Position numbers and translations under genes: made by a program
Notes under the pieces: generated by a model
Told to the model about the DNA's origin: nothing
Database searches by the model: none
What the model saw: only the letters and a program-made list of their open reading frames with translations
Part shown: positions 1 to 27,698 of the stretch, piece by piece
Numbering within the stretch: the first letter of the stretch is position 1
How the letters are laid out: the number at the start of each line of letters is the position of its first letter
Virus record (IMG/VR): IMGVR_UViG_3300048878_000193
Coordinates: 1-42,947 of that record
Direction: 5' to 3' (one strand)
Origin: a virus
Taxonomy: Duplodnaviria > Caudoviricetes
DNA: 42,947 nucleotides

Positions 1-99
1 ACGAAGTTTCCTGGTAGCTTCTCTCTGGACCCGGACTGCCTCATCGCCAGTAAAAACATCCGTCTGTTCTGTCGTGCCATCAATAGGGCGACGTGCTGC
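1..99. repeat. 99-bp overlap identical to 42739-42837 (circularity/assembly overlap)
   Basis: Direct comparison; identity ends at base 100. Confidence 0.95.
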
Positions 100-3000
100 C
101 TCAACACCACCGTCCGCAGCACGCACAGGCGGCGGGGCGGGGGTGGCGTCAAGTTCACGCAGCCTTGCCCGAAGCCGAATTAGTTCATCGGGTTCCACTG
201 AACCAGTAGGGAGAGCACTCTCAAGTTCTTCGATACGCCTTGTCACGGCCCACCATTCAGAAGAACCCCTCCCCGCAACCTCGTCCGCAGCACGCACAGG
301 CGGCGTGGCGGGGGCGGCGGGGGGTACGGGGCGTACCGATGGAGTTTCTTGGGATGTGAGCGGGATAATCTCTTCAGGAGCGCGTGATCCGGTTTGTATG
401 CGCGTCTGAACAGGGTAAATCGTAGAGTTATCAAACGCCACAACTTCCCAGATATCGCCGTCTCGGTCGATGTTTACAAATCCGTCGAACCCATCAGCCT
501 TTAACCGTGCAACATCAAAGTCCCGCGCCGCAGCATCTCGGAACGTGGCAGGGTTCTGGAAGTTGACGTATGCCTCAATCGTCCGAATAGGACCGCGACT
601 TCGGGGAAGGACATCTCCAAACTCAAAAGCCGTTCCTCGCTCTGGTGAGAAGAAAATCCCTTCTACAACATTAGCATCGCCCCCGAAATTGGCTCCAGGA
701 TCAGGGCGAAGTTGATCGACCGGGAAATCCCCTCGTGTTCCGTGGAACACGCGAAGTGGCTTACCAGCAACGTCTACAACTTGAGTTCCCTCTATTTCTC
801 CAGAAATGTTCGCAGGAACGGGGTCTGCGTTCCGTCGAGCAAATGTGAACTCGCCCGTGTCGAAGTTGAACCCACTCTTAATCGACCTGTCTCGAACGGC
901 GTTACCAGCAGCATCTACACGATAGACATTTGACCCAGCGACATGAATCCCTGGCGCAAGCGGTCCAACTTCTCTTGGATTCTCTACTGCGCTTATAAAG
1001 TCCGAAGGACTGGAATGTTCTTGAACCACATCGCTGTGACGTGGCAAACCCTCCGCAACCTCGTCCGCAGCACTCACAGGCGGCGTTACGTCGTCGATAG
1101 CCTCGCCAGCTTGGAACCGATCCCATTCGTCCTGTGTAAGACGCCGCTGCGAACCGTCGGCTTTTCGTAGAAGAATCGACCCTCCTACGCGGTCCCTACC
1201 CGTTGGCGTCTTGAGACTATCTCGAACGATTGTGACTAGCTCGCCCGGAGTAAGAGGTGCCTGATTCGGACGCTTTCGTGGTGGCAAACCTTGAAGTTCA
1301 CGAAGATTAGCCCGAGCCTGGACTAACTGCTCCCCCAGTGCACTACGTCCGGGTGCGCTTGATCCAAACCCCGAATTAGGGTGTACGGCAAAATCAGAAA
1401 TCGCTACCGAGTCGAGTTCGTCCCACCACTCGTTTCCGAGAAATGGGTCACGTTCTTGAGATCGAGCAAACGCGATGATCTTATCGTCTGACCACCCAGC
1501 GAAAATACCTCGTCGGACACTACTAGGAATATCTAAGGCTGTATCTCGTGCTGCACTAACCTCTGTCTCAAGTCGAGCGATTTCGTTTTGCTGTCGAAGG
1601 ATGTCCTGCGCTTTAGGATCATCACCAGTACGCATCAAGGTTTCGAGTTCTTCGTTAAGTCGAGAAATTTCCGCATAGTCATTGACAGATTCGGCATACT
1701 CGATGTCGTCTTGAAGATCATCTAGTTGCTTTTGAAAAGCGTCATCTAGCCCACCAGCACGCGCAACAGGAGCTACGTCGTCCGCCACCTGACCGCCTCG
1801 CTGGGCAAGTTCGGCAGCAATCGCCGCATCTTGAGTCGTCTGACCGCCAGTAGCTATGTCGTCGGCGAATCCTGTCTGACCCGGAACTACCTCACCCGCA
1901 GCGCGAGGAGCATCCCCCATGAACGACGCTTGCGCCATCCCAGGTTGTTCGGCTGTTGGCCGTGCTACATCACCAGCGATACCCTCCAAGCCGCCTTGTA
2001 CGGGACGCACAGGCGGCGTTACGTCGGGGGCGGCGGGACGTGCAGGGGGAGTGAGAATATCCCGTATTGAAGGTGCGTCGGCGGCAGCGAACGGATTTGG
2101 CGGCGGTGGGCGTGTGCCGTCATACATGAAGCCCGTGCGATCGATGATCTTGCCGAAAGTAGTGGTGTTGAATAAATCGATTGTCGGTGGGTAGTGGATG
2201 AAGTCGAGATCACCTTCGGGGGTAATCCTATCCAAATCCACGAGATGACCATCGATGTGGCTGACCCGGAACGGCTCTTCATCGATGTAGATGACTTCGC
2301 CAATCTCAAGGTCCGATGCGTCGGCGGTTCTCGACGGATTTGGATTGGTGGCTCGCCTCCCGACATAGCCACCTCCAGGCGTGACGCCGCCGCCAACTTC
2401 ATCGGCCAGGTTGAACGGGCCGGCTACTCGTGGTTGGTCTGCCGCCTGTGGGCCGACACGACGGATGGTTCCAGAGATTAAGTCTTGGTAGACACGCTCT
2501 GCTGCGTCTGGACGGTTACTGCGTAGCAGAATGTTACGAACGCCGATAGCGAAGCTGTTGACGAGATCGATTGCCCGACGGAAAGCATTACGAGATACTT
2601 CTGGGAAGGCTTCCTTGTAGAAGTCACGAAGAGCCTTGTCTGAGAGAACTTCGGCGAACCACTCGTTGAAGTTAGTAAACCTATATGTATTGCGGAGCCG
2701 TTCTGCAAGGTCTGGCGTAAGTTTCCCTCCACCCAAGCCTCTAGTGGCTAACTGGTCTTGGAATAACAGCAAGTCTCCGCCATCAGCCAAGACACGCCTG
2801 TATTGTTCCTGAAGTGCGCGGAACGCGTCATTACCGAGGAATCGCTGAATATGATGAGCGACTTCATGGATGATAAGACGATTGGGATCAACGGAATTAT
2901 CAAGTGCGCCGAGGGCTATGTTGGCAAGGCTGTCCTCAGTGTTATAAAACCCTGAGACTGTTCGACCCCCACCAGCAGGACCGAAGCTACGCACGTTCCT

Positions 3001-4530
3001 GAAAGAAAGCGCACCACCTTCAAGAACATCTTCAGGCATTGACCTTATAAACGTAATCGCTGCATCAGCAACTTCCGAATCTATACGTCCAACATTACGT
3101 TCTAACTCAATGCGTTGTACTAGAGCATCTGCGCCACGGTTGACGCTACGACCTGCTTCAAGTGCTTCTGCTGATCCCTCACCTACGCGGGGGCCACGGA
3201 ATGTCGTTTGCTCGCGTACACCTCGAACTCCTTCAGGAATGATTTCTCCACGAGGCCCAATACGTCCGATTAACGAACCACCTGATTCTGTCTCATATCG
3301 AACCCACGCCCCACGCGGCCTACCTGCCGCAAACTCTTGCATCCATCCCGGCTGCTCAGACGCAACTGCAATACGTGGATCGCTGAGATCAACGATGTCC
3401 TCTCGCCCGAGTTGCACCTCTCCTGCTCCAGGGCGCTGACGAACAGGAGATTCAGGAAGTGTGTCTAGTTGGCGAATGTCCGTGCCAGCGACGGGAGGTA
3501 TGTCGGCGGCAATATCAGCAGCAGCACGTTCACCGGCGCCAACACTTGCTCCGGGAGTACGCCTGAGAGTCTCCCGTACAGGATCAATTAGTCTTTTAAC
3601 AAAGCGACCTGTACCAACAACACCTTTGAGCCCAATACGTTCTGCGGCCGTAAGTGGAAGCAGTAGCGTTGGGTCGGTGAAGGTTTCAGCAAGCGTGAGC
3701 GTACTGAGAGATGGGCCGATGTCGGGAACGATATCGAGGCCACGGTCGGTTCCGGGCGGGTCTAGGATATTTAATGCGGCACCTGGAAGTCCCGGCAAAA
3801 GCCTCGTGAGATCACCGATGTTTACTGACGGATAGGCATCACGCGTCTCGGAAATCGCTTGACGACCTGCTTGCCACTGAGTCAATCCCTGAGCTTCAAG
3901 TTCAGCACTTCGTTCTCTTACAGCTTTAGGAGCCATACCTGCTTGCAAAGCGAGTTCGGGATTTTCTCTAGCGATTTGTTCGCCCATGCGCAAAATCGGG
4001 CCGAGACTTCCGCTCCAACCGGGCGTCCTGCCCCAGTCAGGTGCCGGTCTACCTTGAGGCGTCAGCCCCAGGAATTTCGCTACTGGACCTATGGGAATCT
4101 CCGGTAACGGTGGAATCGGGCCAGGAAATAGGTCGCGAGGATCCAGATCTTGTTGACGTTCTGATCGATAGTCCCGCTCGTCGCGCTGGCCTTCCAGGTA
4201 GGCGATGAAGTTCTCGGCCGACGCGAGTTCGTCACGCATCCCGATGTTCTCACGCTCGGCTGCGACGAACTCTTCAAGCATCTGCGTCCCACGGATATTC
4301 TCGATCTCACCGATCAATCCATCCGCCAATGACGAGAGTTGCCGGTTTTCTTCCTGAAGTTGAGTCGTGCGCGGGTCGTTACCGAATTGAGGTACAGGTG
4401 GTCGTGGGGGCGTCGAAGGTTGCCGAGGCGGTGTTGGTCCGGGACGCGGGTTCGCTATCTGGAATTGATTAGATAGCCGGTGTCTCGACTCGGTAAAGGA
4501 TCCCGCAACGGCGTCATATCCCGAAGCCAT
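1..4530 (-). CDS. Giant polyvalent (probable internal virion/ejected) protein, N-terminal part; continues across the circular junction into 42738->39220
   Basis: Hand translation shows no stop in this minus frame from ATG 4530 (MASGYDAVAG..., GAGGT RBS) to base 1. It is the same frame as ORF 39220..42867 via the 1-99 = 42739-42837 overlap. Contains HEVAH...EWFAE and VVDVAGKPLRVFHGT motifs. Missing from the ORF track because it runs off the edge. Confidence 0.9.
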   Translation of the reverse strand, partial: MASGYDAVAGSFTESRHRLSNQFQIANPRPGPTPPRQPSTPPRPPVPQFGNDPRTTQLQEENRQLSSLADGLIGEIENIRGTQMLEEFVAAERENIGMRDELASAENFIAYLEGQRDERDYRSERQQDLDPRDLFPGPIPPLPEIPIGPVAKFLGLTPQGRPAPDWGRTPGWSGSLGPILRMGEQIARENPELALQAGMAPKAVRERSAELEAQGLTQWQAGRQAISETRDAYPSVNIGDLTRLLPGLPGAALNILDPPGTDRGLDIVPDIGPSLSTLTLAETFTDPTLLLPLTAAERIGLKGVVGTGRFVKRLIDPVRETLRRTPGASVGAGERAAADIAADIPPVAGTDIRQLDTLPESPVRQRPGAGEVQLGREDIVDLSDPRIAVASEQPGWMQEFAAGRPRGAWVRYETESGGSLIGRIGPRGEIIPEGVRGVREQTTFRGPRVGEGSAEALEAGRSVNRGADALVQRIELERNVGRIDSEVADAAITFIRSMPEDVLEGGALSFRNVRSFGPAGGGRTVSGFYNTEDSLANIALGALDNSVDPNRLIIHEVAHHIQRFLGNDAFRALQEQYRRVLADGGDLLLFQDQLATRGLGGGKLTPDLAERLRNTYRFTNFNEWFAEVLSDKALRDFYKEAFPEVSRNAFRRAIDLVNSFAIGVRNILLRSNRPDAAERVYQDLISGTIRRVGPQAADQPRVAGPFNLADEVGGGVTPGGGYVGRRATNPNPSRTADASDLEIGEVIYIDEEPFRVSHIDGHLVDLDRITPEGDLDFIHYPPTIDLFNTTTFGKIIDRTGFMYDGTRPPPPNPFAAADAPSIRDILTPPARPAAPDVTPPVRPVQGGLEGIAGDVARPTAEQPGMAQASFMGDAPRAAGEVVPGQTGFADDIATGGQTTQDAAIAAELAQRGGQVADDVAPVARAGGLDDAFQKQLDDLQDDIEYAESVNDYAEISRLNEELETLMRTGDDPKAQDILRQQNEIARLETEVSAARDTALDIPSSVRRGIFAGWSDDKIIAFARSQERDPFLGNEWWDELDSVAISDFAVHPNSGFGSSAPGRSALGEQLVQARANLRELQGLPPRKRPNQAPLTPGELVTIVRDSLKTPTGRDRVGGSILLRKADGSQRRLTQDEWDRFQAGEAIDDVTPPVSAADEVAEGLPRHSDVVQEHSSPSDFISAVENPREVGPLAPGIHVAGSNVYRVDAAGNAVRDRSIKSGFNFDTGEFTFARRNADPVPANISGEIEGTQVVDVAGKPLRVFHGTRGDFPVDQLRPDPGANFGGDANVVEGIFFSPERGTAFEFGDVLPRSRGPIRTIEAYVNFQNPATFRDAAARDFDVARLKADGFDGFVNIDRDGDIWEVVAFDNSTIYPVQTRIQTGSRAPEEIIPLTSQETPSVRPVPPAAPATPPVRAADEVAGRGSSEWWAVTRRIEELESALPTGSVEPDELIRLRARLRELDATPAPPPVRAADGGVEAARRPIDGTTEQTDVFTGDEAVRVQREATRKLR
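279..377. repeat. 99-bp overlap identical to 42849-42947
   Basis: Direct comparison with the contig end. Confidence 0.95.
415..780 (-). other. ADP-ribosyltransferase-like domain (ART-PolyVal type) within giant protein
   Basis: VVDVAGKPLRVFHGT...GIFFSP...AYVNFQNP...LKADGFDG...WEVVAF matches the remembered ART-PolyVal pattern (HGT, aromatic-FS/T, terminal E). Confidence 0.8.
2470..3060 (-). other. Zincin-like metallopeptidase domain within giant protein (boundaries approximate)
   Basis: GFYN...IIHEVAHH (HExxH at 2854-2868) followed by NEWFAE (EWFAE at 2650-2664). Confidence 0.75.
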
Positions 4531-4881: not shown

Positions 4882-5748
4882 TTAGAGCCTGAAACCACGG
4901 TCTACGAATGTTCCAAGAACGTTGCCGCCCGGATTCGCAAATGTCTCTTGACTGATACGCCTGTTCAGGGCTGTACCGAACGCGTTACGAAGGAAGCCAG
5001 GGAGTTGCCGTGCACCTCCTGATGCACGGATCAAACGGTTCTGCAAATCACTCGACTCTAGGGCAGTCAGGGCCGCACCGGACAGAGAACCAGATCGACC
5101 CGTTAATTCGGCACCCGGGTCTTGTCCAATCCTCTGACGGCGAACCAAGTCTTTCAGGAGATTACGAATACTGTCGAGTGATGGGATGCCACCCATATCG
5201 CTGGCAAAGGTATTGAACTCTGGAAGATCAATAGCTTGATCGCCCTCTTGTGCTCCAAGAAGTGAGGTGAGTTCAAAGGCGGCATTGGTGGGATCGAAAC
5301 CTCTGGCGAGATTGCGCCGTAGCGACGAACTTCCACGCCCGCGTACCTGTGGATCTACGAAACGAGCATCGAAGAAATTACCTCTTCCCTCAACACCTGA
5401 GAGAAGCTCGGCAAGGATGTCTTGTTCACCTGCTGTTGGCGGGTCGAATACCAGATTACCGTCGCCATTGGTGTCCTCGGGGGGAAATTCTTGCTCGCCC
5501 TCGGCGGCAGAGGTAATTGCGGCGTTGCCTTGCTGAACTATCGAGTCGTAGTCATCGTGATCGAATCGAATTACTCGGGCATTTGGAGAGGTGTGTTCTG
5601 AGCTTTCAAGTTGTCGAATCGAGGTAATTACGCCTGGATTACCTGAGATAAATGCTAGAGCTCGTGCATCGGATTCAGACGCAGCGTGGACAGTAAGAAG
5701 AACATCGCCAACTCGAATCTCGAATCGTATAAAAGCTGCATGTGCCAT
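4882..5748 (-). CDS. Hypothetical protein, probable internal virion protein
   Basis: 288 aa, operon packing directly after portal. Confidence 0.75.
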   Translation of the reverse strand: MAHAAFIRFEIRVGDVLLTVHAASESDARALAFISGNPGVITSIRQLESSEHTSPNARVIRFDHDDYDSIVQQGNAAITSAAEGEQEFPPEDTNGDGNLVFDPPTAGEQDILAELLSGVEGRGNFFDARFVDPQVRGRGSSSLRRNLARGFDPTNAAFELTSLLGAQEGDQAIDLPEFNTFASDMGGIPSLDSIRNLLKDLVRRQRIGQDPGAELTGRSGSLSGAALTALESSDLQNRLIRASGGARQLPGFLRNAFGTALNRRISQETFANPGGNVLGTFVDRGFRL

Positions 5749-5757
5749 TGATTTGTC

Positions 5758-7716
5758 CTATCCCGGGGTTCCCGGTTGCGCCGGTACTGCGCCCATCGCT
5801 TGAAGTAACTGTATCAGCCTTTGAGCAAGTTCCTGTGCGCCCATCTGTTGTAGCGCCTGAACAAGTTGTCCGATTACATCTTCGGGCGGTGTCGTCCCGC
5901 CGTCAATCATCGCAACGAACGGCCCGAGTATTTGTTCGAGGTCGGCCTCTTGTGCGCCACCTTGCATAAGAACCTGTGCGATTTCATCAAGAAGCGCGGC
6001 TAATTCTGCCATCCCCTGTTGGTCGCCTCCACCACCAGTGGGCGTTGCTTCGCCGCTGGGCGTTGCCTCACCGCCTCGATCCGCTGGATCTCTCTCAGGT
6101 TCAGGCCGAGGAAGTGCGCCCTGCTCGACACCGTACTGAAGCACAATCTGTGCGCCCTCGGAGTCACCAGCTTCTAGCAGAGCATTAGCAAGCCCTGTGA
6201 TTTGGATTGGCGGTAATCGTTCTGCTTTTTCTCGAACAACTTTATCGTGCTCTGCGGCCGGGTTACGCAGTTTCAAGATATCTTCACGAGCTGTCTCGTA
6301 GGACAAGAGAGCTTCGCCACCTTGCGGTTCAAGTGTTGCAAGTTGCGCTCGTTGCATTTCCTCGGCTTCATCACGCGGCAATCTGGGTTCTACCCGGACG
6401 TCAAAGAACCACTCGGCATCCAACTTTTGCGGGGTAGTCGTGATCCTGAAGAACTTGCCTTGATCGTTAAATCCAGCGAGCTTCATCTGTTTTTTGCCAG
6501 CCTTCGCCTTTGTTTGGAGGACTAACTCGCGGCAGAGCCAGGTGTAAATTCGGGCCAATCCCTCTGTACGAGGTGAGTAGACCGATCGGGTCTGATCGAT
6601 ACGGACGGCCAGAGCGATACCGGATTCAGGTGCGTTCGTTCCGCCGTGCGAAATCGGTTGTGGGAGGGTGGCCTCAAGTCGGCCGCGCTCGATGATATCG
6701 ATAGTTGCCGCACTCTCTGGTGGTGCGTGCGGAAGTTCTATCGGCGCCAAACTCTCGCCGGTCTTGAGGCGGATTACTTTGAACTCGCCATAGGGATCCT
6801 CAATCGTTTTGGTTCCCTCGGCTGTCGTATAGACCAGGCCAGCGTCTCGGGCGCGCCGAGCGATGTCCATGATGAACGACACCTCTTCGTTGTGTGACCC
6901 GATCGTGTGACGCCATGCGGCAAGTATTGATTCGCCACGATGCTTGATCGTATTCCCAGTGGTATTCGCCACACTGGTATTTTGTTCAAGAATGGTTGGC
7001 ATCGATCCGACCGGAACGATAGCGGCAGGTACATGGTCAAGACCATGCTTGACGTTTTCCTTGAGAAAATTTCCGCCGACAATAATCGAGTTGCCTTCTC
7101 GGTCCCAGAAGTCGATCGCGATAGCACCGTTCTTATCAACAGAGTTAGCGATCTCTTCGCCATATTCCGTGAATACCTGTGCGCGCGTAAGCCATCGTTT
7201 GTTTGCCGCCCAGATCAAGCCGTCGGAACCACTCTCCCAGGTCATGTGCATGGGATCCCACATCGCACAATCGAATTTCACATTTTTCTCGCCGTCTGGA
7301 ATGTGAACAATCAGACGTAGGCCCATCCAACCACGGACGTTTTCGTGCCATGCGAGCCCCTCACGAAGAGGTGGTTCCTGCATATTGACCAGTTGTTGAT
7401 CGATTGCGTGCAGGGCGCCGAAGATGAACAGTTCACCGTCTGAGGCAGCATCCTTATCTGAATCAGAGGCATCTTCGGGCAGTTTGATCGCAATTCGGAT
7501 AAGCGCCCGGTTCGTACCATCTAGTATCTTGCGATGGAAGTTCCCAGGTGCAGGGTCTATGTATTCGTGGTAGTCGTCGCCCTTTACCGTGAACCCTGAT
7601 ATTTCATTATGGATGTAATCAAAATCATCCTCCATCTGCGACCGCGTGTCTTTGAGGATGGTTTCTTGATCGTTAATCGCCTTTTCAATCTCGGCGATGG
7701 TATTAAACAGGGGCAT
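5758..7716 (-). CDS. Portal (head-tail connector) protein
   Basis: 652 aa directly after terL (TAATG overlap); ESGIAL motif near the crown region; low-complexity helical C-terminal extension. Confidence 0.8.
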   Translation of the reverse strand: MPLFNTIAEIEKAINDQETILKDTRSQMEDDFDYIHNEISGFTVKGDDYHEYIDPAPGNFHRKILDGTNRALIRIAIKLPEDASDSDKDAASDGELFIFGALHAIDQQLVNMQEPPLREGLAWHENVRGWMGLRLIVHIPDGEKNVKFDCAMWDPMHMTWESGSDGLIWAANKRWLTRAQVFTEYGEEIANSVDKNGAIAIDFWDREGNSIIVGGNFLKENVKHGLDHVPAAIVPVGSMPTILEQNTSVANTTGNTIKHRGESILAAWRHTIGSHNEEVSFIMDIARRARDAGLVYTTAEGTKTIEDPYGEFKVIRLKTGESLAPIELPHAPPESAATIDIIERGRLEATLPQPISHGGTNAPESGIALAVRIDQTRSVYSPRTEGLARIYTWLCRELVLQTKAKAGKKQMKLAGFNDQGKFFRITTTPQKLDAEWFFDVRVEPRLPRDEAEEMQRAQLATLEPQGGEALLSYETAREDILKLRNPAAEHDKVVREKAERLPPIQITGLANALLEAGDSEGAQIVLQYGVEQGALPRPEPERDPADRGGEATPSGEATPTGGGGDQQGMAELAALLDEIAQVLMQGGAQEADLEQILGPFVAMIDGGTTPPEDVIGQLVQALQQMGAQELAQRLIQLLQAMGAVPAQPGTPG

Positions 7717-9239
7717 TAACGATGTCTCCGTCGTAATCGTCGGGCTATTCGCACATCGTCAACCTGATTGGATCGGCTTCTCGGCGTGATGATATCAACT
7801 TGTGCTTTCTGCGCGTCCCACGCTCGATCTCGACTATTCCATGCCAAGCCTACCGCAGTCGGGTAGTCGTCGTGAGATCCCTCAAGTGCCTCAATCCTAC
7901 CTCCCTTGTTCGGGTTTCGGATCAAATCTCCAAACTGATTAAGTCCATCCTCGTTTGGAATCGTAATGTGTCGAGTCTTTGTTGCTTCCATCAGATCGCC
8001 CCACATTATCGTTCGGGTTGGATTCGTAGCGTGCCAACCAACCTGATCTTTGCCTCGCTCCCAGAGTCGGGGATATTCAAGCGTCTGAGCCATACGGATT
8101 GTAAGGATGCCCCATTCGTTATCTTCAATCGTCCAGATTGGAGATTCGTACCGTTTGAGCATCTTCACGCTTTGAGCTGCAAGTTCTTCCGGTGATATCG
8201 TGCGATTCAGAATATCGGCAACTACCATCCCAGTAATCACGTTTACGATAGCGGTTACTGACCAGTCGTGACCTGTACCTAATCCGTGTGCTGTGTCGGT
8301 GCCGGCAGAATATCGGCCACCGATCTGTGGTAACTGGTAGTAGTTAATAATTCCATCTGTCTCGATCGGTGTTCTTAGATCCTCACGCATCGATTCAAGA
8401 ATATCTGGATCAAATGCTGCCAGAGCTCGTGATGGCCGCAACGCTTCTGCTTCTGTACGCGGGTATGCGGACTCCATGTAGAGATCGGCCGACATTTCAG
8501 CCGTATCGGAAGTCTCACTACGAACTCGGTCGTACCATGCCTGATCTCGGGATGGTCGTACATCCCATCCGTAGAACCGCTTGGTAAAGCCATTCTCGGG
8601 TGCGGCCCGGTAGTTGGCTTTGAAGAGCGTGACGGCTTTGCGTTTGTTGACCGTAGAACACTGGATAAGTTGACCGCCAGCGTCCAGGGTCGGCTTCAGA
8701 GCTTCCGTATTCGCCTCTGCATTGTCGTGGAAGTCGGCCTCGTCCTGAATCGCTAGAGTAGCTGTCTCGCCACGTCCTGCGTCCTCTGTCGAGGGAAAAG
8801 CCATGATCCGAGATCCGTTGGCGAACTCGAAGAGCTTGACGTTGACCCGGTTGGTCTTACTGACGATGCCTTTCAGATGTTTCGGCAAGTATTGGTGGAT
8901 AGTCTTGCACTTTTGGAGTAACGCTCCGGCCTCAAGTTCTCCTTGTGAGAACAACAGAACGACGGCGCCATCGTGATATGCGGCCGTCCAGTACGCATAG
9001 GAAGCAAGTAACCAGGAGAACCCGATCTGTCGGGACTTGAGAACAGTAATCAAGCGATCGGCACCGAATACGGCAACCGCATCCATCAAGTGTTCCCACT
9101 TCGCAAACTTAATCAGACCACCACCCGGCGGCGGCTCTAGGATCTGAACGTAATCGAGGAAGTGCTCGAACGAATCTTGCGATATCTGCCGTTCAAGTTT
9201 GGGGATCGTGACAACTTGATCGTCGGCTATGGTCGTCAT
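7716..9239 (-). CDS. terL: Terminase large subunit
   Basis: KSRQIGFSW Walker A, AIQDEADF Walker B, RNase-H-like GTDTAHG and HDDYPTA. Confidence 0.95.
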   Translation of the reverse strand: MTTIADDQVVTIPKLERQISQDSFEHFLDYVQILEPPPGGGLIKFAKWEHLMDAVAVFGADRLITVLKSRQIGFSWLLASYAYWTAAYHDGAVVLLFSQGELEAGALLQKCKTIHQYLPKHLKGIVSKTNRVNVKLFEFANGSRIMAFPSTEDAGRGETATLAIQDEADFHDNAEANTEALKPTLDAGGQLIQCSTVNKRKAVTLFKANYRAAPENGFTKRFYGWDVRPSRDQAWYDRVRSETSDTAEMSADLYMESAYPRTEAEALRPSRALAAFDPDILESMREDLRTPIETDGIINYYQLPQIGGRYSAGTDTAHGLGTGHDWSVTAIVNVITGMVVADILNRTISPEELAAQSVKMLKRYESPIWTIEDNEWGILTIRMAQTLEYPRLWERGKDQVGWHATNPTRTIMWGDLMEATKTRHITIPNEDGLNQFGDLIRNPNKGGRIEALEGSHDDYPTAVGLAWNSRDRAWDAQKAQVDIITPRSRSNQVDDVRIARRLRRRHR

Positions 9240-11001: not shown

Positions 11002-11022
11002 CGGCCTGAATTTACGATTAGC

Positions 11023-11425: not shown

Positions 11426-11959
11426 ATGACAACCGCAACGACCGAACACCGCGTATATATCGCGAGTCTCGCGGACTATAACGCGGGCCGCTTGCATGGC
11501 CGATGGATTGACGCCACGCTAGGCGCGGAACACATCCAGACCGAAACCGCCGCCATGCTTGCCGAGTCCCGCGAACCGTTCGCCGAGGAATGGGCAATTC
11601 ACGACTATGAGGGATTCGAGGGGTGGAAGCTCGGCGAGTGGGAATCATTCGACACCGTGGCCGAAGTCGCCGAAGCGATGGAAGCCGCCGACGATCCCGC
11701 CGCGGTGGGCGCATGGATCGCGAACCAACCGGAATACAACGTTCAGAACCTTGACGGATTCGCGGACGAGTACCGCGGGGAATGGTCGAGCGGCGCGGAG
11801 TACGCCGAGCAGTTTTACGAGGAAACGGTAGGCGCGGAAGCGCTGGGACCGCTGGCCCTGTACATCGATTGGGCGCACGTATGGCGCGATAAGTTCGAGT
11901 ACGCCAACACATGGAGCGCGAACAGCGCCGGCGGTATCTACGTTTTCGAGGGATCCTAG
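11426..11959 (+). CDS. ardA: ArdA antirestriction protein (DNA mimic)
   Basis: VYIASLADYNAGRLHGRWID...EEWAIHDYEGF...GEWES; highly acidic. Confidence 0.93.
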   Translation: MTTATTEHRVYIASLADYNAGRLHGRWIDATLGAEHIQTETAAMLAESREPFAEEWAIHDYEGFEGWKLGEWESFDTVAEVAEAMEAADDPAAVGAWIANQPEYNVQNLDGFADEYRGEWSSGAEYAEQFYEETVGAEALGPLALYIDWAHVWRDKFEYANTWSANSAGGIYVFEGS

Positions 11960-16156: not shown

Positions 16157-16449
16157 TGGCCGACCGACACCACTTCGAGCCCGGGCCGAACGAACGGTGC
16201 CGGGAGTGCAAGGCCGAGGAATGGGAAAACCAACCGTGGAAGCCTCAACACTTCCCGGGACTACTGCGCGGCGACTACTCGACCGACTGCCCGGTGTGCA
16301 GCGCCAGCGCAGAGGGAACGGCCACGTACGCGACCGGCGAGAAACTTGATTGGGGTAACGATCGGGGATCTTACACGCCGTATGAGGGCGAGGTTATGAA
16401 GATCGTGTACGTTCAGTGTGCCGCGTGCGGTTGGGATCAAGCGTCTTGA
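16156..16449 (+). CDS. Hypothetical Zn-ribbon protein
   Basis: Three CxxC motifs; TAATG coupling. Confidence 0.7.
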   Translation: MADRHHFEPGPNERCRECKAEEWENQPWKPQHFPGLLRGDYSTDCPVCSASAEGTATYATGEKLDWGNDRGSYTPYEGEVMKIVYVQCAACGWDQAS

Positions 16450-17255
16450 TAAAGCTCAAAACGCACCGACCGGATTCGATGTGGTCAACGCTGGAACTGG
16501 CTGAGTCTTTGGGCTGGATCGACGAGAACATCGAGCCGTGGACTCCCGCCGCCGCTGACGCAACCGAAGCCTCTGCCGAGGACTGGCTGAAAGACCACGA
16601 TTACCTGATCCTGCCGATGGAAGGCGATGCCCTACGCATAGCCGATCTCTACTGCGGGGCCGGTGGCGCAGGGATGGGCTTGCACAGAGCCGGGTTCGAC
16701 GTAGTTGGCTACGACATTAACCGCCAGCCCGACTACCCGTTCGAGTTCCACCGGACCGATGCGCTAGGCGTAGACCTGTCAGGATTCGATGCGGTATGGG
16801 CCAGCCCACCCTGCCAGGCGTACACCCGCAAGTCTGCAACGTGGGGCCGTCCGAGGGTCAACGATATCCAACACCCCGACCTCGTGGGGCCTACCCGCCA
16901 ACTCCTGGTCGAGTCAGGGTTGCCATACGTTATCGAGAACGTCGTGGGCGCACCGCTGGACGCATCGCTAATGCTGTGCGGGACGATGTTCGGGTTGCGG
17001 CTAATCAAGCACCGAATCTTTGAGTCCAACATATCGCTGGGGATGTCACCGGCAGCTTGCGATCACAGTGATGTGTATAACCCGTGGCAGGGCAAAGGCC
17101 GCAACGCAGAGAAGTTTCGCGAGGCGCAGGGAACGCCGTGGATTCCGAGTCCCGGCGGAGCGTCCCGCAAGGCCGGGTACACCGGCGATCTAAGCAACGC
17201 TATCCCACCAGCCTACTCAAAACACTTGGGAGATATGCTAAGTGACGCTTGCTAA
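16446..17255 (+). CDS. DNA (cytosine-5) methyltransferase
   Basis: DLYCGAGG (motif I), ASPPCQ (catalytic PC), IENV (motif VI), LCGTMFGL; start codon uncertain. Confidence 0.9.
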   Translation: MIKLKTHRPDSMWSTLELAESLGWIDENIEPWTPAAADATEASAEDWLKDHDYLILPMEGDALRIADLYCGAGGAGMGLHRAGFDVVGYDINRQPDYPFEFHRTDALGVDLSGFDAVWASPPCQAYTRKSATWGRPRVNDIQHPDLVGPTRQLLVESGLPYVIENVVGAPLDASLMLCGTMFGLRLIKHRIFESNISLGMSPAACDHSDVYNPWQGKGRNAEKFREAQGTPWIPSPGGASRKAGYTGDLSNAIPPAYSKHLGDMLSDAC

Positions 17256-21047: not shown

Positions 21048-21301
21048 CAATGTTAGAGCAACTTCTGGAACAGCAATCTCGACAAGACCAGACTGGCGCA
21101 GCATCCAGTGTCGAAATCGCGACCAACGCTAAAGGGCTCGCTCAGGTCAAAGTCAAGGTGTACAACCCGTTCAGCGACGTTGAAAGCATGGAAGAGTTCG
21201 AGATCCAACTCGGCAACCTCGCTGACATCGCTGTACGGCTGCGGCAGTACGCCATCGAGAAGGTCCGCGAAGAGGGCGGCAAGGTGGTGGGCGACGAATG
21301 A
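21044..21301 (+). CDS. Hypothetical protein
   Basis: GAGGA RBS, overlaps at both ends. Confidence 0.7.
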   Translation: MTMLEQLLEQQSRQDQTGAASSVEIATNAKGLAQVKVKVYNPFSDVESMEEFEIQLGNLADIAVRLRQYAIEKVREEGGKVVGDE

Positions 21302-22200
21302 GCCTCGCACACGAGCGCACACGCGAGCGGGACAAATCCACCGACGACTCCCAAACACACCGATACATGACCGGCCAGCCAGTGGCGGCAGCGATCGACA
21401 CGCACATGCGCCGGCAGTACGGCGAAAGGAAAGCCATGACTCAAGAAGTAGGAATCGTCACCCGGGAAGATGCCCAAATAGCACAGAACGACTGGGGCAA
21501 ATCTTTCGGCCCACTGTTCAACCAGCAGTCAACGGCCTTGCAGCTAGCCCACCTGCACAAGACCGGATTCAACCCCGGACACATCGACCTGGTTCACGGC
21601 AACCTGTTCGTCAACATCAAGGGGCTGGAGTGGCACGCACGCCAGAAACTCGGCAATACGTTTGGCGCCGTCGCGCAGCCGATTGTCCTGGAGGGCGCAG
21701 AGAAAACCGCACGCGGCGGCAAGGATCACGAGATCGCCGTACTCGTCAACTACTACGGGCGACACCCAGCCACCGGCAACCTTGAGCTTGAAATGGAAGC
21801 CGCCCAGGGATTCGGGCGAGCCTCTACGGTCAAGGGCAAAGAGGTGATCGCAGGATCCTCGGTCGAGGCGCAGCACCCGTACAAAATGGCGGTCAAGCGC
21901 GCCAAAGCAGAGCTCTACCGGGAGATCGCTCCAATCGGCATCGACATAGGTGTTGCCGATGAGGGCTACGAGATTGCGCCGGCCAGCGTCACAGTCGAGG
22001 AAACACCGCGCATCCAACTGGAAGAGCCCGAAGCCGAAGAGGTGTTCGGCTGTTCTACCGAGGACTGTGACGAAATTGCGGTCACGAACATCGACGGTAT
22101 GCACTACTGCTCGGAACACTCCGCTGCGGTGATCGCATCGACCACGGAAGAGGACGCAACACCTGACATCGACGACGGCCAGAAAACATTGGAGTGGTAA
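21298..22200 (+). CDS. Probable single-strand annealing recombinase (RecT/Bet-like)
   Basis: LFVNIKGL...GFGRAS...PYKMAVKRAKAELYR pattern, acidic tail, adjacent to sbcCD; could start at 21436. Confidence 0.6.
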   Translation: MSLAHERTRERDKSTDDSQTHRYMTGQPVAAAIDTHMRRQYGERKAMTQEVGIVTREDAQIAQNDWGKSFGPLFNQQSTALQLAHLHKTGFNPGHIDLVHGNLFVNIKGLEWHARQKLGNTFGAVAQPIVLEGAEKTARGGKDHEIAVLVNYYGRHPATGNLELEMEAAQGFGRASTVKGKEVIAGSSVEAQHPYKMAVKRAKAELYREIAPIGIDIGVADEGYEIAPASVTVEETPRIQLEEPEAEEVFGCSTEDCDEIAVTNIDGMHYCSEHSAAVIASTTEEDATPDIDDGQKTLEW

Positions 22201-24225
22201 ATGAAAATCACCCGCATCCGGGCGCACAACCTACGGCAACTCAGGGACGTGGACGTAACAATCCCTGACGGACTCAGCCTAGTTGTGGGACCGAACGACA
22301 CCGGTAAGACGACCCTGCTCTGCATCGCCTCACGCTGGGCGCTCTGGGGCGCTCACGCGGTGCCGTCACAAAACAGACAGGTCACATACGGCGAGTCCGA
22401 TATGGAAGTCGATGCTTACTTCCTGCTGAACGGACTGCACTACCACGTCAAGCGCCGACTACATCTGACCGACAGTGGCCGACCAACCGTGGCCCTGCAC
22501 TTTGAGCAGGTTGGAGAAAATCTCACTCAAGGCACGATCCGAGAAACACAAGCCAGCATCGACAGCCTCATCGGGACATACGAGACGTTCCGCATGACGG
22601 CCTACGTCGATCAGGTCGAGGGGCCAGGTGACTTTCTCAAGCGCACACCCGCAGATCAGCGCGAGGTGCTGCGTGAACTACTAGCCCTGGGCGACTGGGA
22701 CGCGTGGCACGAGGATGCGAAAGAGAACGCTGCCGCACTCGGGCTGGCCGTCAGCATGGGCGAGTCACGCCTTGAGGTAATGCGCGCCGATATCGAGAAC
22801 ATCCCAGGCGCACGCAGAAATCTCGCGACGGCTGAAGTGTCCGTTACCAACGCAGAAACGGCTCTCCGTGTCTCTGAGGCCGCTAAAACAAAGGCTGACA
22901 GGGCAGTTGACGAGCTCTTCCGACAGCACCTCGCACATGAACAGGCGATTCGCTCCATCGAGCAGGTTGGTGCGCGGCTTGTCACGCTGGACGAGTTGCA
23001 TCGTAAAGCGAACAACCTTGTGGCCGCGGACAACGCGCTGATTGAAGCCAACGACGAGATTAAGCGTGCGTGGGAAGAGCAGGAGGAAGAGCAGGATGAA
23101 TGGGAGGTTGAACGAGATAACGTAGCCTTCCGTAACCAACAAATCCAGAAGCGCAACCGTGAAGCTCGCGACGATTACAGCAAGCGTGCTAACGCCGTAT
23201 CCACCGAAGTCTCGCGAATCCAGAAAGAACATTCCGGCCGTGAGGCAGTACGCAAGGCCGCGGCGAAGTGTCCCGAGTGTGGTCAACCGATCAACGCGCC
23301 TGACGCGCTCGCCCCGATCATGCCCGAACCGGCCAAGCTCGCCGACACTGAGGAACTGCTACCGGTCCCGCCGCAGCCGACCATCATGGGCGACATCATC
23401 ACCCTGCACGACCAGTGGCTACGCGTAGGCGAGCGTTCGCAGGAACACGCGGAGGATCTGCACAAGGTTCTGAGCGAGGTAGAAGAGGCAACCGCTGACC
23501 GGCAGGTACTTGAGGACGAAATGCCAGAGGACACCGACCCTGACGTGGCAGAACAGGGGCGAGGATTCGCACGAGAACTTGCACGGAAACAGATATGGCA
23601 AAGGGAAGATCTCAACGATGCGAACGTCGAAAAGGGCAAGGCAGGGTCGGTTCTGGCGCAGTTACTCAAGATCGAAGAGGACACCGGCTACCTAGCAGAC
23701 GAGATCGAACAGGATCGGGAGGCGCTACGCCTTGCCGAACTCCTGGCCGAAGCGTTCTCCCCCGGTGGCACACGTCAACTCATGCTGGATCAGGCACTCC
23801 ACGAGCTTGAGGCGGCGGCGAACATCGCTCTCGCTACTCTCATGCCTGGGTTCTCCGTACACAGTGGTACGCAATCCGAGACAGGCGTTGAAACTCTTGA
23901 GTTTATGATCCGCACACCTGCGGGTCTGCTGACGTGGGCTGATCTGGGCGGAGCTGCATCGGTGGCCGTGGCCCTTGCAGTACGCATCGGGCTAATGGAT
24001 TTACTCGCGAAGTATCGAGGCGTGCGCTATGAGCACATGATCCTCGATGAAGCGGACTCGTGGCTCGTGGGCGAGCGTCAAGACGGCTACGTGCGGTTGC
24101 TTCAACGACTCGTTGAGTCTCGGGGTATGACCGTCACGGCTATTTCACACATCGCAAGCGTTCAGGAGACGATCGGACAACAGATCGTGCTCACCCCGGG
24201 CGCAGAGGGAACGGTGGTCGTGTGA
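22201..24225 (+). CDS. sbcC: SbcC/Rad50-like SMC ATPase
   Basis: GPNDTGKTT, coiled coils, CPECGQ Zn hook, ILDEAD, ISH. Confidence 0.92.
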   Translation: MKITRIRAHNLRQLRDVDVTIPDGLSLVVGPNDTGKTTLLCIASRWALWGAHAVPSQNRQVTYGESDMEVDAYFLLNGLHYHVKRRLHLTDSGRPTVALHFEQVGENLTQGTIRETQASIDSLIGTYETFRMTAYVDQVEGPGDFLKRTPADQREVLRELLALGDWDAWHEDAKENAAALGLAVSMGESRLEVMRADIENIPGARRNLATAEVSVTNAETALRVSEAAKTKADRAVDELFRQHLAHEQAIRSIEQVGARLVTLDELHRKANNLVAADNALIEANDEIKRAWEEQEEEQDEWEVERDNVAFRNQQIQKRNREARDDYSKRANAVSTEVSRIQKEHSGREAVRKAAAKCPECGQPINAPDALAPIMPEPAKLADTEELLPVPPQPTIMGDIITLHDQWLRVGERSQEHAEDLHKVLSEVEEATADRQVLEDEMPEDTDPDVAEQGRGFARELARKQIWQREDLNDANVEKGKAGSVLAQLLKIEEDTGYLADEIEQDREALRLAELLAEAFSPGGTRQLMLDQALHELEAAANIALATLMPGFSVHSGTQSETGVETLEFMIRTPAGLLTWADLGGAASVAVALAVRIGLMDLLAKYRGVRYEHMILDEADSWLVGERQDGYVRLLQRLVESRGMTVTAISHIASVQETIGQQIVLTPGAEGTVVV

Positions 24226-24629
24226 CACATGACCACGAGTTCCGAGGGTATCCAACCTGCTACTGCGGCGAAGCTAATCCTGAGTGGGTCGAAGAGTTAA
24301 CAGCAGATCTTGACAGTATCAGCCTTACGAATGTTCCAGAGACGTACGCTGCCGGCCTACGGGACACGTCAAGAATTGCGTTTCACTCAACGGATCGGAA
24401 GTCAATGCGTGCCAACGTCTACCGGTTCTTTCTTGAGTGCGGGTACACCGGCGCAACTGCGGATGAGGTTGTCGTGAAATTCGATCCATCAATGACGCTC
24501 ACCACCTCCTATGCTCCCCGAGTAACCGAGTTAATGCGTGAGGGATTATTGATACGAACGGAGCGGCGACGAAAGACAACAAAGGGCCGACCTGCAATCG
24601 TTTACCGAGCTATCACAAAGGAACAATGA
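24222..24629 (+). CDS. Winged-HTH protein
   Basis: GATADEV...PRVTELMREGLL...RRKT..GRPAIVY. Confidence 0.75.
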   Translation: MTHDHEFRGYPTCYCGEANPEWVEELTADLDSISLTNVPETYAAGLRDTSRIAFHSTDRKSMRANVYRFFLECGYTGATADEVVVKFDPSMTLTTSYAPRVTELMREGLLIRTERRRKTTKGRPAIVYRAITKEQ

Positions 24630-25834
24630 TGAAAGACCACTACCGAATCCTGATCGTCGCAGACACGCACATCGGCGCCGAGCGCCGGCCCTGGCTGCGA
24701 AAGGTAGGCGTGACACCCGAGCAGTACGACGCGCCGCTGCGTGAGGCGGTCAAATGGTTCAGGGACAACGCTGCCGATATGTTGATCGTCGCTGGCGATG
24801 TGTTCGATCAGCGCAACCCGCTCCCGGGCGACTACGCACGAGCGCAGAAGATATACCCAGCAAACACGGTCTACGTCGCCGGCAACCACGACATTTCAGC
24901 GCAGGGCGACGTCAACGCGCTCTGGTGGAGCGACGGATACGCCATGAGCGGTCGGCCGAGTTTGATTGAGCCGTACGGAACGGCGAGGAACCCAGGCGTG
25001 CAGATCGTGTGCCTACCGTGGCCGCGACCGTCCGATTACAACGCTGACAAGATTACCGGATGGACGATCAGGGAAGAGATCGCCCGAACCAGACAAGCGA
25101 TTCTTGAAGATTTGAATGACATCGCTGTTAACGACATCGACCAGACACGCCCTGCGATCCTCGTAGGCCACGCGATGGTGAGCTATGGCAACACGACACC
25201 GGACGACCCCGGCCTCATGCTGGGCAAGGATGTGGTGCTGCCGTACGAGTCGCTGACGAGTCTCCCGAACATCGGTGGCGTCTACCTGGGCCACGTCCAC
25301 GACCCGAGCTCTCCCGCTTACGTGGGCAGCACGCAGCCGACGGACTGGGGCGAGGCCGATCAGGTCAAGAGCTTCACGGTGGTGGACATCACAAAGGTGG
25401 ACCCTGACAGCCTGTTCATTCAGTCTGCGGCAGATCTAATACAAGAAGTTGGAGAGCCAATCATCGTCAACGGTTGGCGATACATCACCCGCCAGATCCC
25501 GTACACAACGTCGCTCAAACTGGCAACTGTCAGTAATGAGGACTACGAATTGGCCGGCGACTACGATGGCGTGCGTTTGACGTGGACGGTGCGTGAGGGC
25601 GACGACCCTGAACAACTCGCTATCGCCGAACGAGCTCTGCGGGATCAGCACCCCTACGTCGAGGTGATCGTGGAGCACGAGGTCAAGCGTGCGGCAAGGG
25701 TCGAGACGATCGAGCCACTAGCGAAGATGAGCCCTATGGACGCGCTTGGCGTATGGCTTGAGCAACGCGAGACACCCGGCGACGACCACAGGGCTGTCGA
25801 AATGATGGCGCACGAGATCATCAGCGATCAATAA
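24626..25834 (+). CDS. sbcD: SbcD/Mre11-like metallophosphoesterase nuclease
   Basis: ADTH, AGDVFD, GNHD, LVGH, LGHVH, YVGS. Confidence 0.92.
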   Translation: MMKDHYRILIVADTHIGAERRPWLRKVGVTPEQYDAPLREAVKWFRDNAADMLIVAGDVFDQRNPLPGDYARAQKIYPANTVYVAGNHDISAQGDVNALWWSDGYAMSGRPSLIEPYGTARNPGVQIVCLPWPRPSDYNADKITGWTIREEIARTRQAILEDLNDIAVNDIDQTRPAILVGHAMVSYGNTTPDDPGLMLGKDVVLPYESLTSLPNIGGVYLGHVHDPSSPAYVGSTQPTDWGEADQVKSFTVVDITKVDPDSLFIQSAADLIQEVGEPIIVNGWRYITRQIPYTTSLKLATVSNEDYELAGDYDGVRLTWTVREGDDPEQLAIAERALRDQHPYVEVIVEHEVKRAARVETIEPLAKMSPMDALGVWLEQRETPGDDHRAVEMMAHEIISDQ

Positions 25835-25850
25835 CGGATAGGAGTAGAGA

Positions 25851-26411
25851 ATGAGAGTATTCGCCATCGACCCCGGCCCTACGAAGTCTGGCTGGGTTTC
25901 TCTCGTGAACGGAGTCCCTGCCCTGTGGGGCTGGGAAGATAACGACGTTCTTATCGAGAAGCTGCAAGTGGCATGGGTGCAAGAGTCCACCCTTGTGATC
26001 GAGGACATCGGGAACTACGGCATGGCCGTCGGTCGAGATACGTTCGATACGTGCAAGTGGATGGGCCGGTTCGACCAGGCTCACGTAACCGACGCTATCT
26101 TCATCCCTCGCCCTACAATCAAGACGCACCTGTGCGGCGTGGCCTCTGCGAAAGACGGCAACGTGCGCCAAGCACTGATCGACCGCTTCGGCGGTGACGA
26201 GGTAGCGGTCGGCGGGAAGAAGTGTCACTCCTGTAAGGGGAAGGGCTGGAGGGGGGCTGGTCGCCCCGTATGCGAAGAGTGCAACGGCGACAAGTACGAG
26301 ACACCGCCGGGGATCCTGCACGGCGTCTCAGGCCACGCATGGAGCGCGCTAGCGGTCGGCGTTACTTACCTCGATCAGATATCCGTAGCAGTCAGCACCG
26401 ATGCCACTTAG
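25851..26411 (+). CDS. RuvC-like Holliday junction resolvase with Zn-finger insertion
   Basis: FAIDPG, VIE, K...K.NV, WSALAV; CHSCKGKG...CEECNG insert. Confidence 0.8.
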   Translation: MRVFAIDPGPTKSGWVSLVNGVPALWGWEDNDVLIEKLQVAWVQESTLVIEDIGNYGMAVGRDTFDTCKWMGRFDQAHVTDAIFIPRPTIKTHLCGVASAKDGNVRQALIDRFGGDEVAVGGKKCHSCKGKGWRGAGRPVCEECNGDKYETPPGILHGVSGHAWSALAVGVTYLDQISVAVSTDAT

Positions 26412-26747: not shown

Positions 26748-27698
26748 TTAGTCCTTCCTAGAGAGCTTCGCCGCCCTCGCAATCAGCGCGAGTAACCTAC
26801 TGTACGCCTTGTCCAGCTTTGTTCTGGCCCTCGATGGTGTGCCGGTAGACAGGTCGCCGTCCCAGACGAACACAAAGCACAGAGCAACCACGAAAAGCAC
26901 CCCGACTAAGAGTGACGGTACAAGTACCAGAACGACGGCGGCTCGCCGCAAGATTCCGACCAGCACCGCTTTGATTCTACGGATCACAAGTCTCCCCTTT
27001 CCAGGCTGGGCCAGCCATGCAAGCAGCAACCCAACCTCGTACAAAATTATGATGGGTATGGCGACCATCAATTGGTTCACGATATCAAACGTCGGAGTAA
27101 TTATTGCAGAGAGAATAATGGCTACGGGCGGGACGAACTTCCGCACTCGTCTGAACCGCTGGTACGAAATGAGTCGCAGCTTCGCCAGTAGGAACATCAA
27201 GAGCGGCAACTCGAAGATCACTCCGAGCCAGAATAAAAGGACGATAGCCAGACCCAGATACTCAGATATCCTGATGGTGGGTACGGCGATGCCCTCCCCA
27301 AAGTGCAGCAGAAATGCAATCCCCACCGGCAGCATCACGTAATATGCGAACGACACCCCAGCGAGGTAGCACAGGAGGATCGCTGGCAGGAAAAGGGCAA
27401 CAAGCCGTCGCTCGTGCCGGGAGATTAACGGGCTCACCAGGTAGAAAATAGTGAGTACGAGAACGGGGATCGCGAGGACCACGCCGCCCGTTAGCGACAG
27501 GCGTATGGTCACAGACAGAATCTCAGTCGGCGAGGTATATATGGGCAGCCCATAATGGGGAGAGAGCTGGCCGTCAGCCGGGGCGATTAACCAACCGAAA
27601 ATCACGACGCGGAAATACCACGTAAGGCCAGCGCCGACCCCGAACGCTAAGAATGTCCCGAGAAGTCCGAACCGGACTCTACGGGCGAACCGCCTCAT
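26748..27698 (-). CDS. tatC: TatC (twin-arginine translocase) homolog, divergent
   Basis: YTSPTE, P...ERR, FAYYVMLP, GVIFELP, AIITPTFD..NQ..VAIPIIILYE; six TatC-like TM helices plus an extra C-terminal hydrophobic segment. Confidence 0.92.
   Translation of the reverse strand: MRRFARRVRFGLLGTFLAFGVGAGLTWYFRVVIFGWLIAPADGQLSPHYGLPIYTSPTEILSVTIRLSLTGGVVLAIPVLVLTIFYLVSPLISRHERRLVALFLPAILLCYLAGVSFAYYVMLPVGIAFLLHFGEGIAVPTIRISEYLGLAIVLLFWLGVIFELPLLMFLLAKLRLISYQRFRRVRKFVPPVAIILSAIITPTFDIVNQLMVAIPIIILYEVGLLLAWLAQPGKGRLVIRRIKAVLVGILRRAAVVLVLVPSLLVGVLFVVALCFVFVWDGDLSTGTPSRARTKLDKAYSRLLALIARAAKLSRKD

Follow-up and report, generated by a model that had tools for sequence, protein, structure and literature searches.

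Polyvalent proteins are known for bewildering combinations of domains, and the papers that we searched give no route by which such combinations are assembled at the level of DNA. How, then, could a phage gene of this kind gain, lose or reorder a domain without losing its reading frame? The question is raised by the window (the whole stretch of 42,947 nucleotides analysed here), a complete virus record of 42.9 kb in the Caudoviricetes, in which one giant gene carries four copies of an in-frame repeat of about 43 nt, encoding a peptide of about PATPPVRAADEV. The repeat proves to be a DNA seam shared with other giant phage genes, modules have recently been exchanged between divergent genes of this kind, and the presence or absence of one module is a natural polymorphism. 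We read the repeat as a homologous-recombination joint through which co-infecting phages gain, lose and reorder modules in frame, and put the probability of this reading at roughly two in three (0.68).

The giant gene and its setting

The record encodes a terminase, major head protein, tail fibre, ArdA, primase/helicase, SbcCD-like nuclease, resolvase and TatC. Its DNA is found in hydrothermal-vent and seawater metagenomes, with at least half of its words in 8 of the 24 listed runs; two runs are possible sources. It has no match in GenBank phages, and for the head protein identities reach 33% at most. The giant gene spans the contig join, with the terminase block (7716-9239) on one side and the major head gene (37489-38466) on the other; a 652-aa ORF is, by its position, a putative portal. 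The contig must walk both sides of an assembly bubble because its ends match internal positions exactly over 99 nt (1-99 = 42739-42837; 279-377 = 42849-42947). From these overlaps, the whole protein is calculated at 2682 aa in a long allele and 2626 aa in a short one.

Because it combines a zincin-like HExxH module with an ART-PolyVal match (32 bits against a Pfam cut-off of 31.2) and an LPD38 domain, the product is a polyvalent protein of phage type in the sense of the main text of Iyer et al. (2017; PMC5512222). The position of its gene, together with the fact that LPD38 proteins are found in virions or needed for infection, suggests by analogy that it is packaged in the virion and delivered to the host. 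The features discussed below are collected in Table 1.

Table 1. Positions in the window of the giant gene, its linkers and modules, and candidate recombination genes
Feature	Position	Strand	Remark
Giant polyvalent gene, 5' part (P0001, 1510 aa)	1-4530	−	exits contig start into bubble
Giant gene, 3' part (P0002)	39220-42945	−	short-allele junction and C-terminal core
LPD38 domain, C-terminal core	40366-40890	−	E 1e-40, 140 bits
Short (major) allele	junction 42838-42848 (11 nt), single linker copy 42849-42889	−	
Linker copy 1	108-148	−	long allele only; 36.8 bits
Linker copy 2	277-319	−	best fit to family profile; 45.9 bits
Linker copy 3	1057-1093	−	39.7 bits
Linker copy 4, partial	2004-2032	−	24.8 bits
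Half-linker (ADEVGG)	2389-2406	−	end of MPTase-like module common to window, L088 and P0012
Helical-hairpin module (57-codon unit with its linker)	149-276	−	minor allele
ART module: small beta domain and ART-PolyVal	320-1056	−	Pfam match at about 496-774
311-codon composite stretch	1094-2003	−	no Pfam or PHROG match
Small module, family not named	2038-2394	−	part 48% identical to a stretch of L001
Zincin-like (MPTase-type) module	2428-3483	−	HEVAH at 2854-2868; no Pfam match
Candidate recombination genes: RecT-like lead (21298-22200), SbcC-like, SbcD-like, Holliday-junction resolvase	21298-26411	+	

Several features outside the giant gene deserve mention. A full TatC (149 bits) is encoded at 26748-27698 on the minus strand, at the end of the tail block; its best matches in the phage collection are about 30% identical, the annotated ones lying on long Salmonella and Acinetobacter records, and this comparison yielded no clue to the host. 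Additional counter-defence functions are an ArdA anti-restriction gene (11426-11959, plus strand) and a C5 methyltransferase-like ORF (16416-17255). Five intergenic repeats occur on the plus strand of the early region (11021, 11970, 12311, 13614 and 14041), each shortly 5' of a small gene. Four of them have in common a conserved decamer on the 5' side, a stem-loop that varies and a second hairpin that is conserved, while at 11021 the 5' part alone is clear; two copies fold with z of -2.7 and -3.1, and none has a sigma-70 consensus promoter. They recall PeSL cassettes and are a possible second repeat-based shuffling system. When a further phage, L092 (4912-5481), is set beside the window (4882-5748), the portal-like and terminase genes are 91-95% identical, the 288-aa gene upstream of the giant gene 37% and the next gene, of 114 aa, 96%, a contrast which indicates that neighbouring putative ejection genes are swapped too.

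The linker repeat and the modules it borders

All four copies lie in frame in the minus-strand ORF, as the initial annotation had claimed. They match one another pairwise over 22-38 nt at 88-97%, with longest exact runs of 12-24 nt. The peptide had been given as PPV[RS]AAD; this does not extend to copy 4, which encodes PPVRP. A profile of the linker finds 23 matches of at least 20 bits in 48,180 nt (11 gene pieces) whereas 963,600 nt of codon-shuffled copies yield no match. As most of these genes went into the profile, this control speaks for specificity rather than independent discovery. Over 21 copies there is an invariant pattern of eight bases, mostly within the PVRA codons; in the peptide, V is invariant and P-P-V-R-A-A nearly so. 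Neither strand forms a significant hairpin (z -1.6 to +1.0 in five folds of four copies), and a reading of the linker as a hairpin or attC site was dropped, as the folds are no better than those of shuffles.

From start to start, copies 1, 2 and 3 are 171 and 780 nt apart, and copy 4 matches copy 3 at an offset of 933 nt, corresponding to 57, 260 and 311 codons. The initial annotation had taken these for three modules. The spacing stands and the ART domain does lie in the 260-codon stretch, but neither of the longer stretches is a single module: the first is a small beta domain plus the ART domain, and the second is a composite of at least two pieces, with a degenerate linker at 1755-1782. The ART match falls wholly inside its module, whose sequence has HGT, FFS and a late Glu, which would make up the ART triad. 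In the zincin-like module a downstream Glu is found in NEWFAE (2650-2667).

When 133-1086 was modelled from the single sequence, only two parts came out with confidence: the beta domain that directly follows linker 3, and the helical hairpin flanked by linkers 2 and 1, whose fold matches are all generic hairpins (Z at most 7.7). The linkers are modelled as low-confidence coil, and the ART part has a pLDDT below 50. Structure prediction had been proposed as a check on module borders, and in the model the linkers do appear to fall between domains, although a module may hold more than one. Beside the small beta domain, the ART module contains a weak internal repeat (78%; 752-778 and 893-919, 141 nt apart), possibly an old duplication. 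In one related protein, P0007, the module that follows the ART module (345-476) resembles the C-terminal half of ART (29% over 108 columns) and may be a second, divergent ART in tandem.

Silent sites of the linker

A linker may be conserved for the sake of its peptide or of its DNA, and here the silent sites are informative. Linker codons agree with the consensus in 115 of 127 cases (33 expected), and the Val codon is GTG in 24 of 24. When linkers with unrelated sequence on both flanks are paired, 826 of 1011 same-residue codons are identical (82%, against 25% expected); elsewhere, the corresponding value is 15-31% for the N-terminus and divergent cores, and modules that were shared recently reach 74-94%. 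Since the loci had been found by a DNA pattern, the count was repeated for the five copies that match no scan pattern, in which 21 of 25 codons are those of the consensus (6.5 expected). Where PVRA-like peptides occur inside cores, in three cases, their codons are mostly different ones. The earlier statement that identity extends to synonymous positions is therefore borne out, the silent sites being nearly fixed.

These counts bear on an explanation at the level of the peptide, in which the linker matters as a polyprotein protease site or spacer and its DNA is alike through copying along with recently moved domains. The near-invariance of the peptide agrees with this, as does the fact that codon identity in linkers is no higher than in recently shared modules; autoprocessing by MPTase domains has also been proposed for polyvalent proteins in the main text of PMC5512222. 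However, the silent sites are fixed between copies whose flanks are unrelated on both sides, and a related gene, L001, agrees with the window at 39 of 40 linker bases yet has no high-identity module in common with it. The motif is missing from 15 of the 16 other minus-strand ORFs tested (the small terminase, the exception, has a weak RAAD), just 3 of 20 sequences, several of them partial, contain a true HExxH module, and many joints are half-linkers that lack PPVRA. The peptide explanation is the main rival to our reading, and we consider it unlikely.

Relatives with unrelated cores

Exact-pattern scans recovered nine further giant ORFs with the in-frame repeat (L001, L011, L024, L063, L085, L088, L089, L093 and L113). 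A 16-nt scan of viral contigs gave 74 stretches, four of which extended into true linkers (L001, L011, L024 and L063). True linkers made up three of eight matches in a 21-nt metagenome scan, three of five distinct loci (one new) and 3 of 17 (none new) in two further pattern scans, and one of two in a genome scan (L113). The remaining matches did not pass checks of profile and frame and were discarded as fortuitous. When 20 aligned linker peptides served as the query, 11 proteins emerged from 8000 scored candidates, four of them already known from these loci, and their clusters contributed further members; a homolog search with the helix and its linkers returned only the protein of L088 among 1213 candidates. 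All of these relatives were found through the linker and are thus selected for having it.

The C-terminal cores of the relatives fall into nine types, with no BLASTP match in 27 of 36 pairs and 41% identity in the best pair; no type aligns with the window core, and the cores have no LPD38 match. The domains of these proteins include GNAT, ParB-like and DdrB-ParB. A point against our reading is that the five closest relatives of the LPD38 core (56-59%) have short N-termini without a linker match; the linker system is therefore not a property of the core. Where flanks are present, gene context is as in the window, with a terminase and a portal-like gene upstream in L001 and L063/L108 and two head-sized genes downstream of the linker gene in L011, L024, L085, L088, L093 and L113. 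The 294-aa downstream genes of L113 and L088 neither align with the window head protein nor have a PHROG match.

Seven proteins (P0005, P0008-P0012 and P0014; residues 1-105) with five core types are nearly identical over their first 75-105 aa, which may be a leader for packaging or sorting and would itself be exchangeable; the window and L001 share a different N-terminal stretch. L113, a phage-like 29-kb contig, comes from a genome bin labelled Planctomycetaceae, and proteins nearly identical to its own occur on 35-40 kb contigs elsewhere. The label may reflect faulty binning or hint at the host, and we do not take it as evidence of a host.

Modules in traffic

Between unrelated cores, modules are shared at 76-98% nucleotide identity. 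The ART module of the window recurs linker to linker in P0007 (93% of residues over 247), and parts of it are found in P0010 and also in P0030, where a third core type follows. The helical module recurs in L088 at 95% (98%, or 125 of 127 bases, outside masked linkers), where it is placed after the MPTase-like module; the latter is itself common to the window, L088 (87% of nucleotides) and P0012. The last third of the 311-codon stretch (1087-1407) is found again in P0013 (79% of residues), before a linker and another core. Among the relatives, a Pfam GNAT module occupies differing places in four, a PHROG ParB-like module is common to L011 and L113 (85% of nucleotides), and another module to L024 and L093 (90%). 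Across 19 proteins we count 21 shared and 28 unique module pieces, core and N-terminal pieces included, most of them without a Pfam name.

The domain content of homologs, which had been suggested as a check, is not fixed. P0008 and P0009 share N-terminus and core (97.5%), as do P0011 and P0014 (95%), and the middle modules of each pair differ. In P0037, two modules are inserted exactly linker to linker relative to P0013, the left flank (which ends in a linker) and the right flank being identical. The position of such changes was tested with the motifs masked: among high-identity blocks of 20 proteins, 66 of 115 internal ends have no continuing homology and reduce to 28 unique content switches. 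Seventeen of the 28 lie within 10 aa of a consensus-derived motif set, where a generous null gives 4.8 (P ~2e-7). A broader motif set, tuned afterwards, captures 21 of 28 (6.2 expected), and the excess is weaker for all block ends (17 of 55 against 8.9). A DNA-level endpoint test (10 of 19) was set aside, as two ends fall at the contig edge of L085 and masking can cut alignments.

The proposal of the initial annotation, that recombination at the linkers swaps domains in frame, is thus supported in the clustering of switches at the motif; the crossover itself we infer. Exchange is not confined to the repeat, because the switches that miss it include the N-terminal 100-350 aa. The peptide explanation would account for the clustering in another way, with switches gathering at the linker since only crossovers at domain borders survive selection, and both this and the recombination joint can be true.

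Long and short alleles

In the window itself, the alleles differ by 168 nt (56 codons), with 179 nt in the long form replaced by 11 nt in the short. The absence of one module from an alternative allele had been noted before and is real and natural, although it amounts to 168 rather than 171 nt and is no clean excision. The junction of the short allele reads ADEAGAEAARR, where excision between copies 1 and 2 would give ADGGVEAARR; because it has its own junction letters, it is not the crossover product of these copies. Alleles and joints were compared in contigs rather than raw reads, over 1-2700, for 4 of the 24 listed runs. Contigs bridge the short allele in all four (depth 22, 41, 40 and 7.9), and pieces of the long allele are seen only in X2 (162-302, depth 4.4), a possible source run of the window, and X5 (70-148, depth 9). 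The long allele is therefore a minority strain form. Most simply, it would have been imported from a third phage, because L088 has the same helical module. As strain alleles rather than an excision pair, the two forms are weaker evidence than had been thought.

A search for joints between other linker pairs, such as a loss of 780 nt, had been proposed as a check. Over window 1-2700, the contigs of the four runs show neither a 780- nor a 933-nt loss; a backward joint, as expected of a module mini-circle, is likewise absent from them, though contigs alone show little here. In X5, two contigs depart from the window at the edges of linker 3 (1049) and linker 4 (2043) and continue into other sequence in frame, as judged by hand translation. 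The one joint between non-adjacent positions is a 76-nt contig (depth 3) that connects 322 to 2006, a distance of 561 codons.

Mosaics of this kind might instead have arisen in metagenome assembly, as chimeras of phages that occur together and have long modules in common. The window does traverse a bubble, the comparison rests on contigs, and P0007, P0010 and P0030 are fragments that look frameshifted. Against this, single contigs in X3 and X4 span 279-2700 unchanged, distinct architectures recur as 90% clusters of 7, 8, 9 and 16 members from several sources, and exact repeats in the window do not exceed 24 nt, far under the 99-nt overlaps. We find the chimera explanation scarcely credible.

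A possible route for exchange

If the repeat is a recombination joint, co-infecting phages could recombine at 20-40 nt of shared repeat and thereby swap or move modules in frame, either by a double crossover between different repeat pairs or by way of a looped-out small circle that re-enters at another copy. Catalysis would fall to a short-homology single-strand annealing recombinase. Enzymes of the Red-beta type need 23-27 bp of identity compared with 31-34 bp for RecA, according to the accessible part of PMC3945230. The longest exact runs in the window repeat (up to 24 nt) are within this quoted range for Red-beta and below that for RecA, and most runs between window copies (12-21 nt) are under the quoted Red-beta minimum. 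The product of 21298-22200 is a candidate only: a RecT-like lead came from Atlas (0.91, with only 151 shared features), and four tests did not confirm it, there being no Pfam or PDB match, a model pLDDT of 40 and no fold match. The traffic of exchange could itself homogenise the repeat. The giant protein would be packaged and then ejected into the host, where its modules may act on host targets by NAD-dependent ADP-ribosylation, acetylation, proteolysis or nuclease activity, and the Pro/Ala linker peptide would serve as a flexible spacer that lets any module order fold.

A dedicated site-specific recombinase, integron- or shufflon-like and of phage or host origin, could also insert and excise cassettes at the repeat. 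The eight-base invariant pattern, the clean two-module difference between P0013 and P0037 and the changes in module order are what such an enzyme would leave. Yet Pfam and PHROG scans of 36 + 17 ORFs have no integrase, invertase or reverse transcriptase match (an integron-type tyrosine integrase among them, with remote or host enzymes outside the reach of these scans of 53 ORFs), the linker has no significant hairpin, and the joints vary from full to half and doubled linkers, with switch points scattered across and beyond the motif. We consider a dedicated recombinase very improbable.

Exchange through a homologous joint may extend beyond one phage lineage, the sharers of the repeat having unrelated ejection-protein cores and head-gene neighbours that cannot be aligned. 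It is an even wager, in our estimate, that the repeat is an integrase-free, in-frame cassette system, a community-wide standard of about 43 nt by which marine phages pool injected enzyme domains in any order, possibly as excised module circles. Seams, modules in mid-traffic and a natural allele together make the assembly of multi-effector virion proteins directly testable, and the linkers offer an objective criterion for delimiting candidate anti-defence domains.

Comparison with known systems

In polymorphic toxin cassettes and integrons, an effector module is replaced by recombination at a conserved stretch. The modules of the window protein are instead internal, several per protein, and stand before a long constant C-terminal core; we noticed no orphan cassette or immunity array, and the linker lacks the folded site that is attC in integrons. 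With regard to a diversity-generating retroelement, the ORFs scanned have no reverse transcriptase match, and the variation is of whole modules and not of point changes.

The closest class is that of the polyvalent proteins (Iyer et al., 2017; PMC5512222), which likewise are giant and multidomain, with ART-PolyVal, LPD38 and zincin-like modules encoded in a virion gene block. As far as its main text goes, that work explains architectures by domain accretion and describes no in-frame DNA joint; the words 'linker' and 'shuffl' do not occur in it, and the one case for which it considers cassette recombination is a kinase locus near small ORFs. No description of an in-frame DNA joint in polyvalent proteins was found in the available parts of the literature searched outside subscription journals. 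Two LPD38 proteins of comparable size (2.2-2.8 kaa) provide the analogy for packaging: phi24B gp47, a virion component for which a role in ejection is proposed (bioRxiv 10.64898/2026.04.10.717836), and PTXU04_00025, required for infection (10.1101/2023.09.18.558157). Unlike the window, neither is said to have repeat-delimited modules in the portions of these reports available to us.

For the mode of exchange, the nearest likenesses lie in other phages. The PeSL cassettes of T4-type phages (Arbiol et al., 2010; PMC2839356) also combine short dispersed repeats with modular gain, loss and replacement, and mini-circles are considered as possible vectors. In the accessible part of that report, these are intergenic promoter/terminator cassettes with a stem-loop that move whole genes; the window repeat is in-frame coding sequence without a stable hairpin, and what it moves are domains within a single protein. 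The conserved motifs (GRMs) of the T-even gp38 adhesin are within a gene, and its variable segments (HVSs) are exchanged at or near them as here (Trojet et al., 2011; PMC3157838). As far as the excerpt of that paper extends, the GRMs are strictly fixed in order and number and make up a structural core around short loops, whereas the window system varies the number and order of entire globular domains, which also pass between backbones that cannot be aligned. We therefore place the window system as a member of the polyvalent class that works like an intragenic PeSL or gp38-GRM system.
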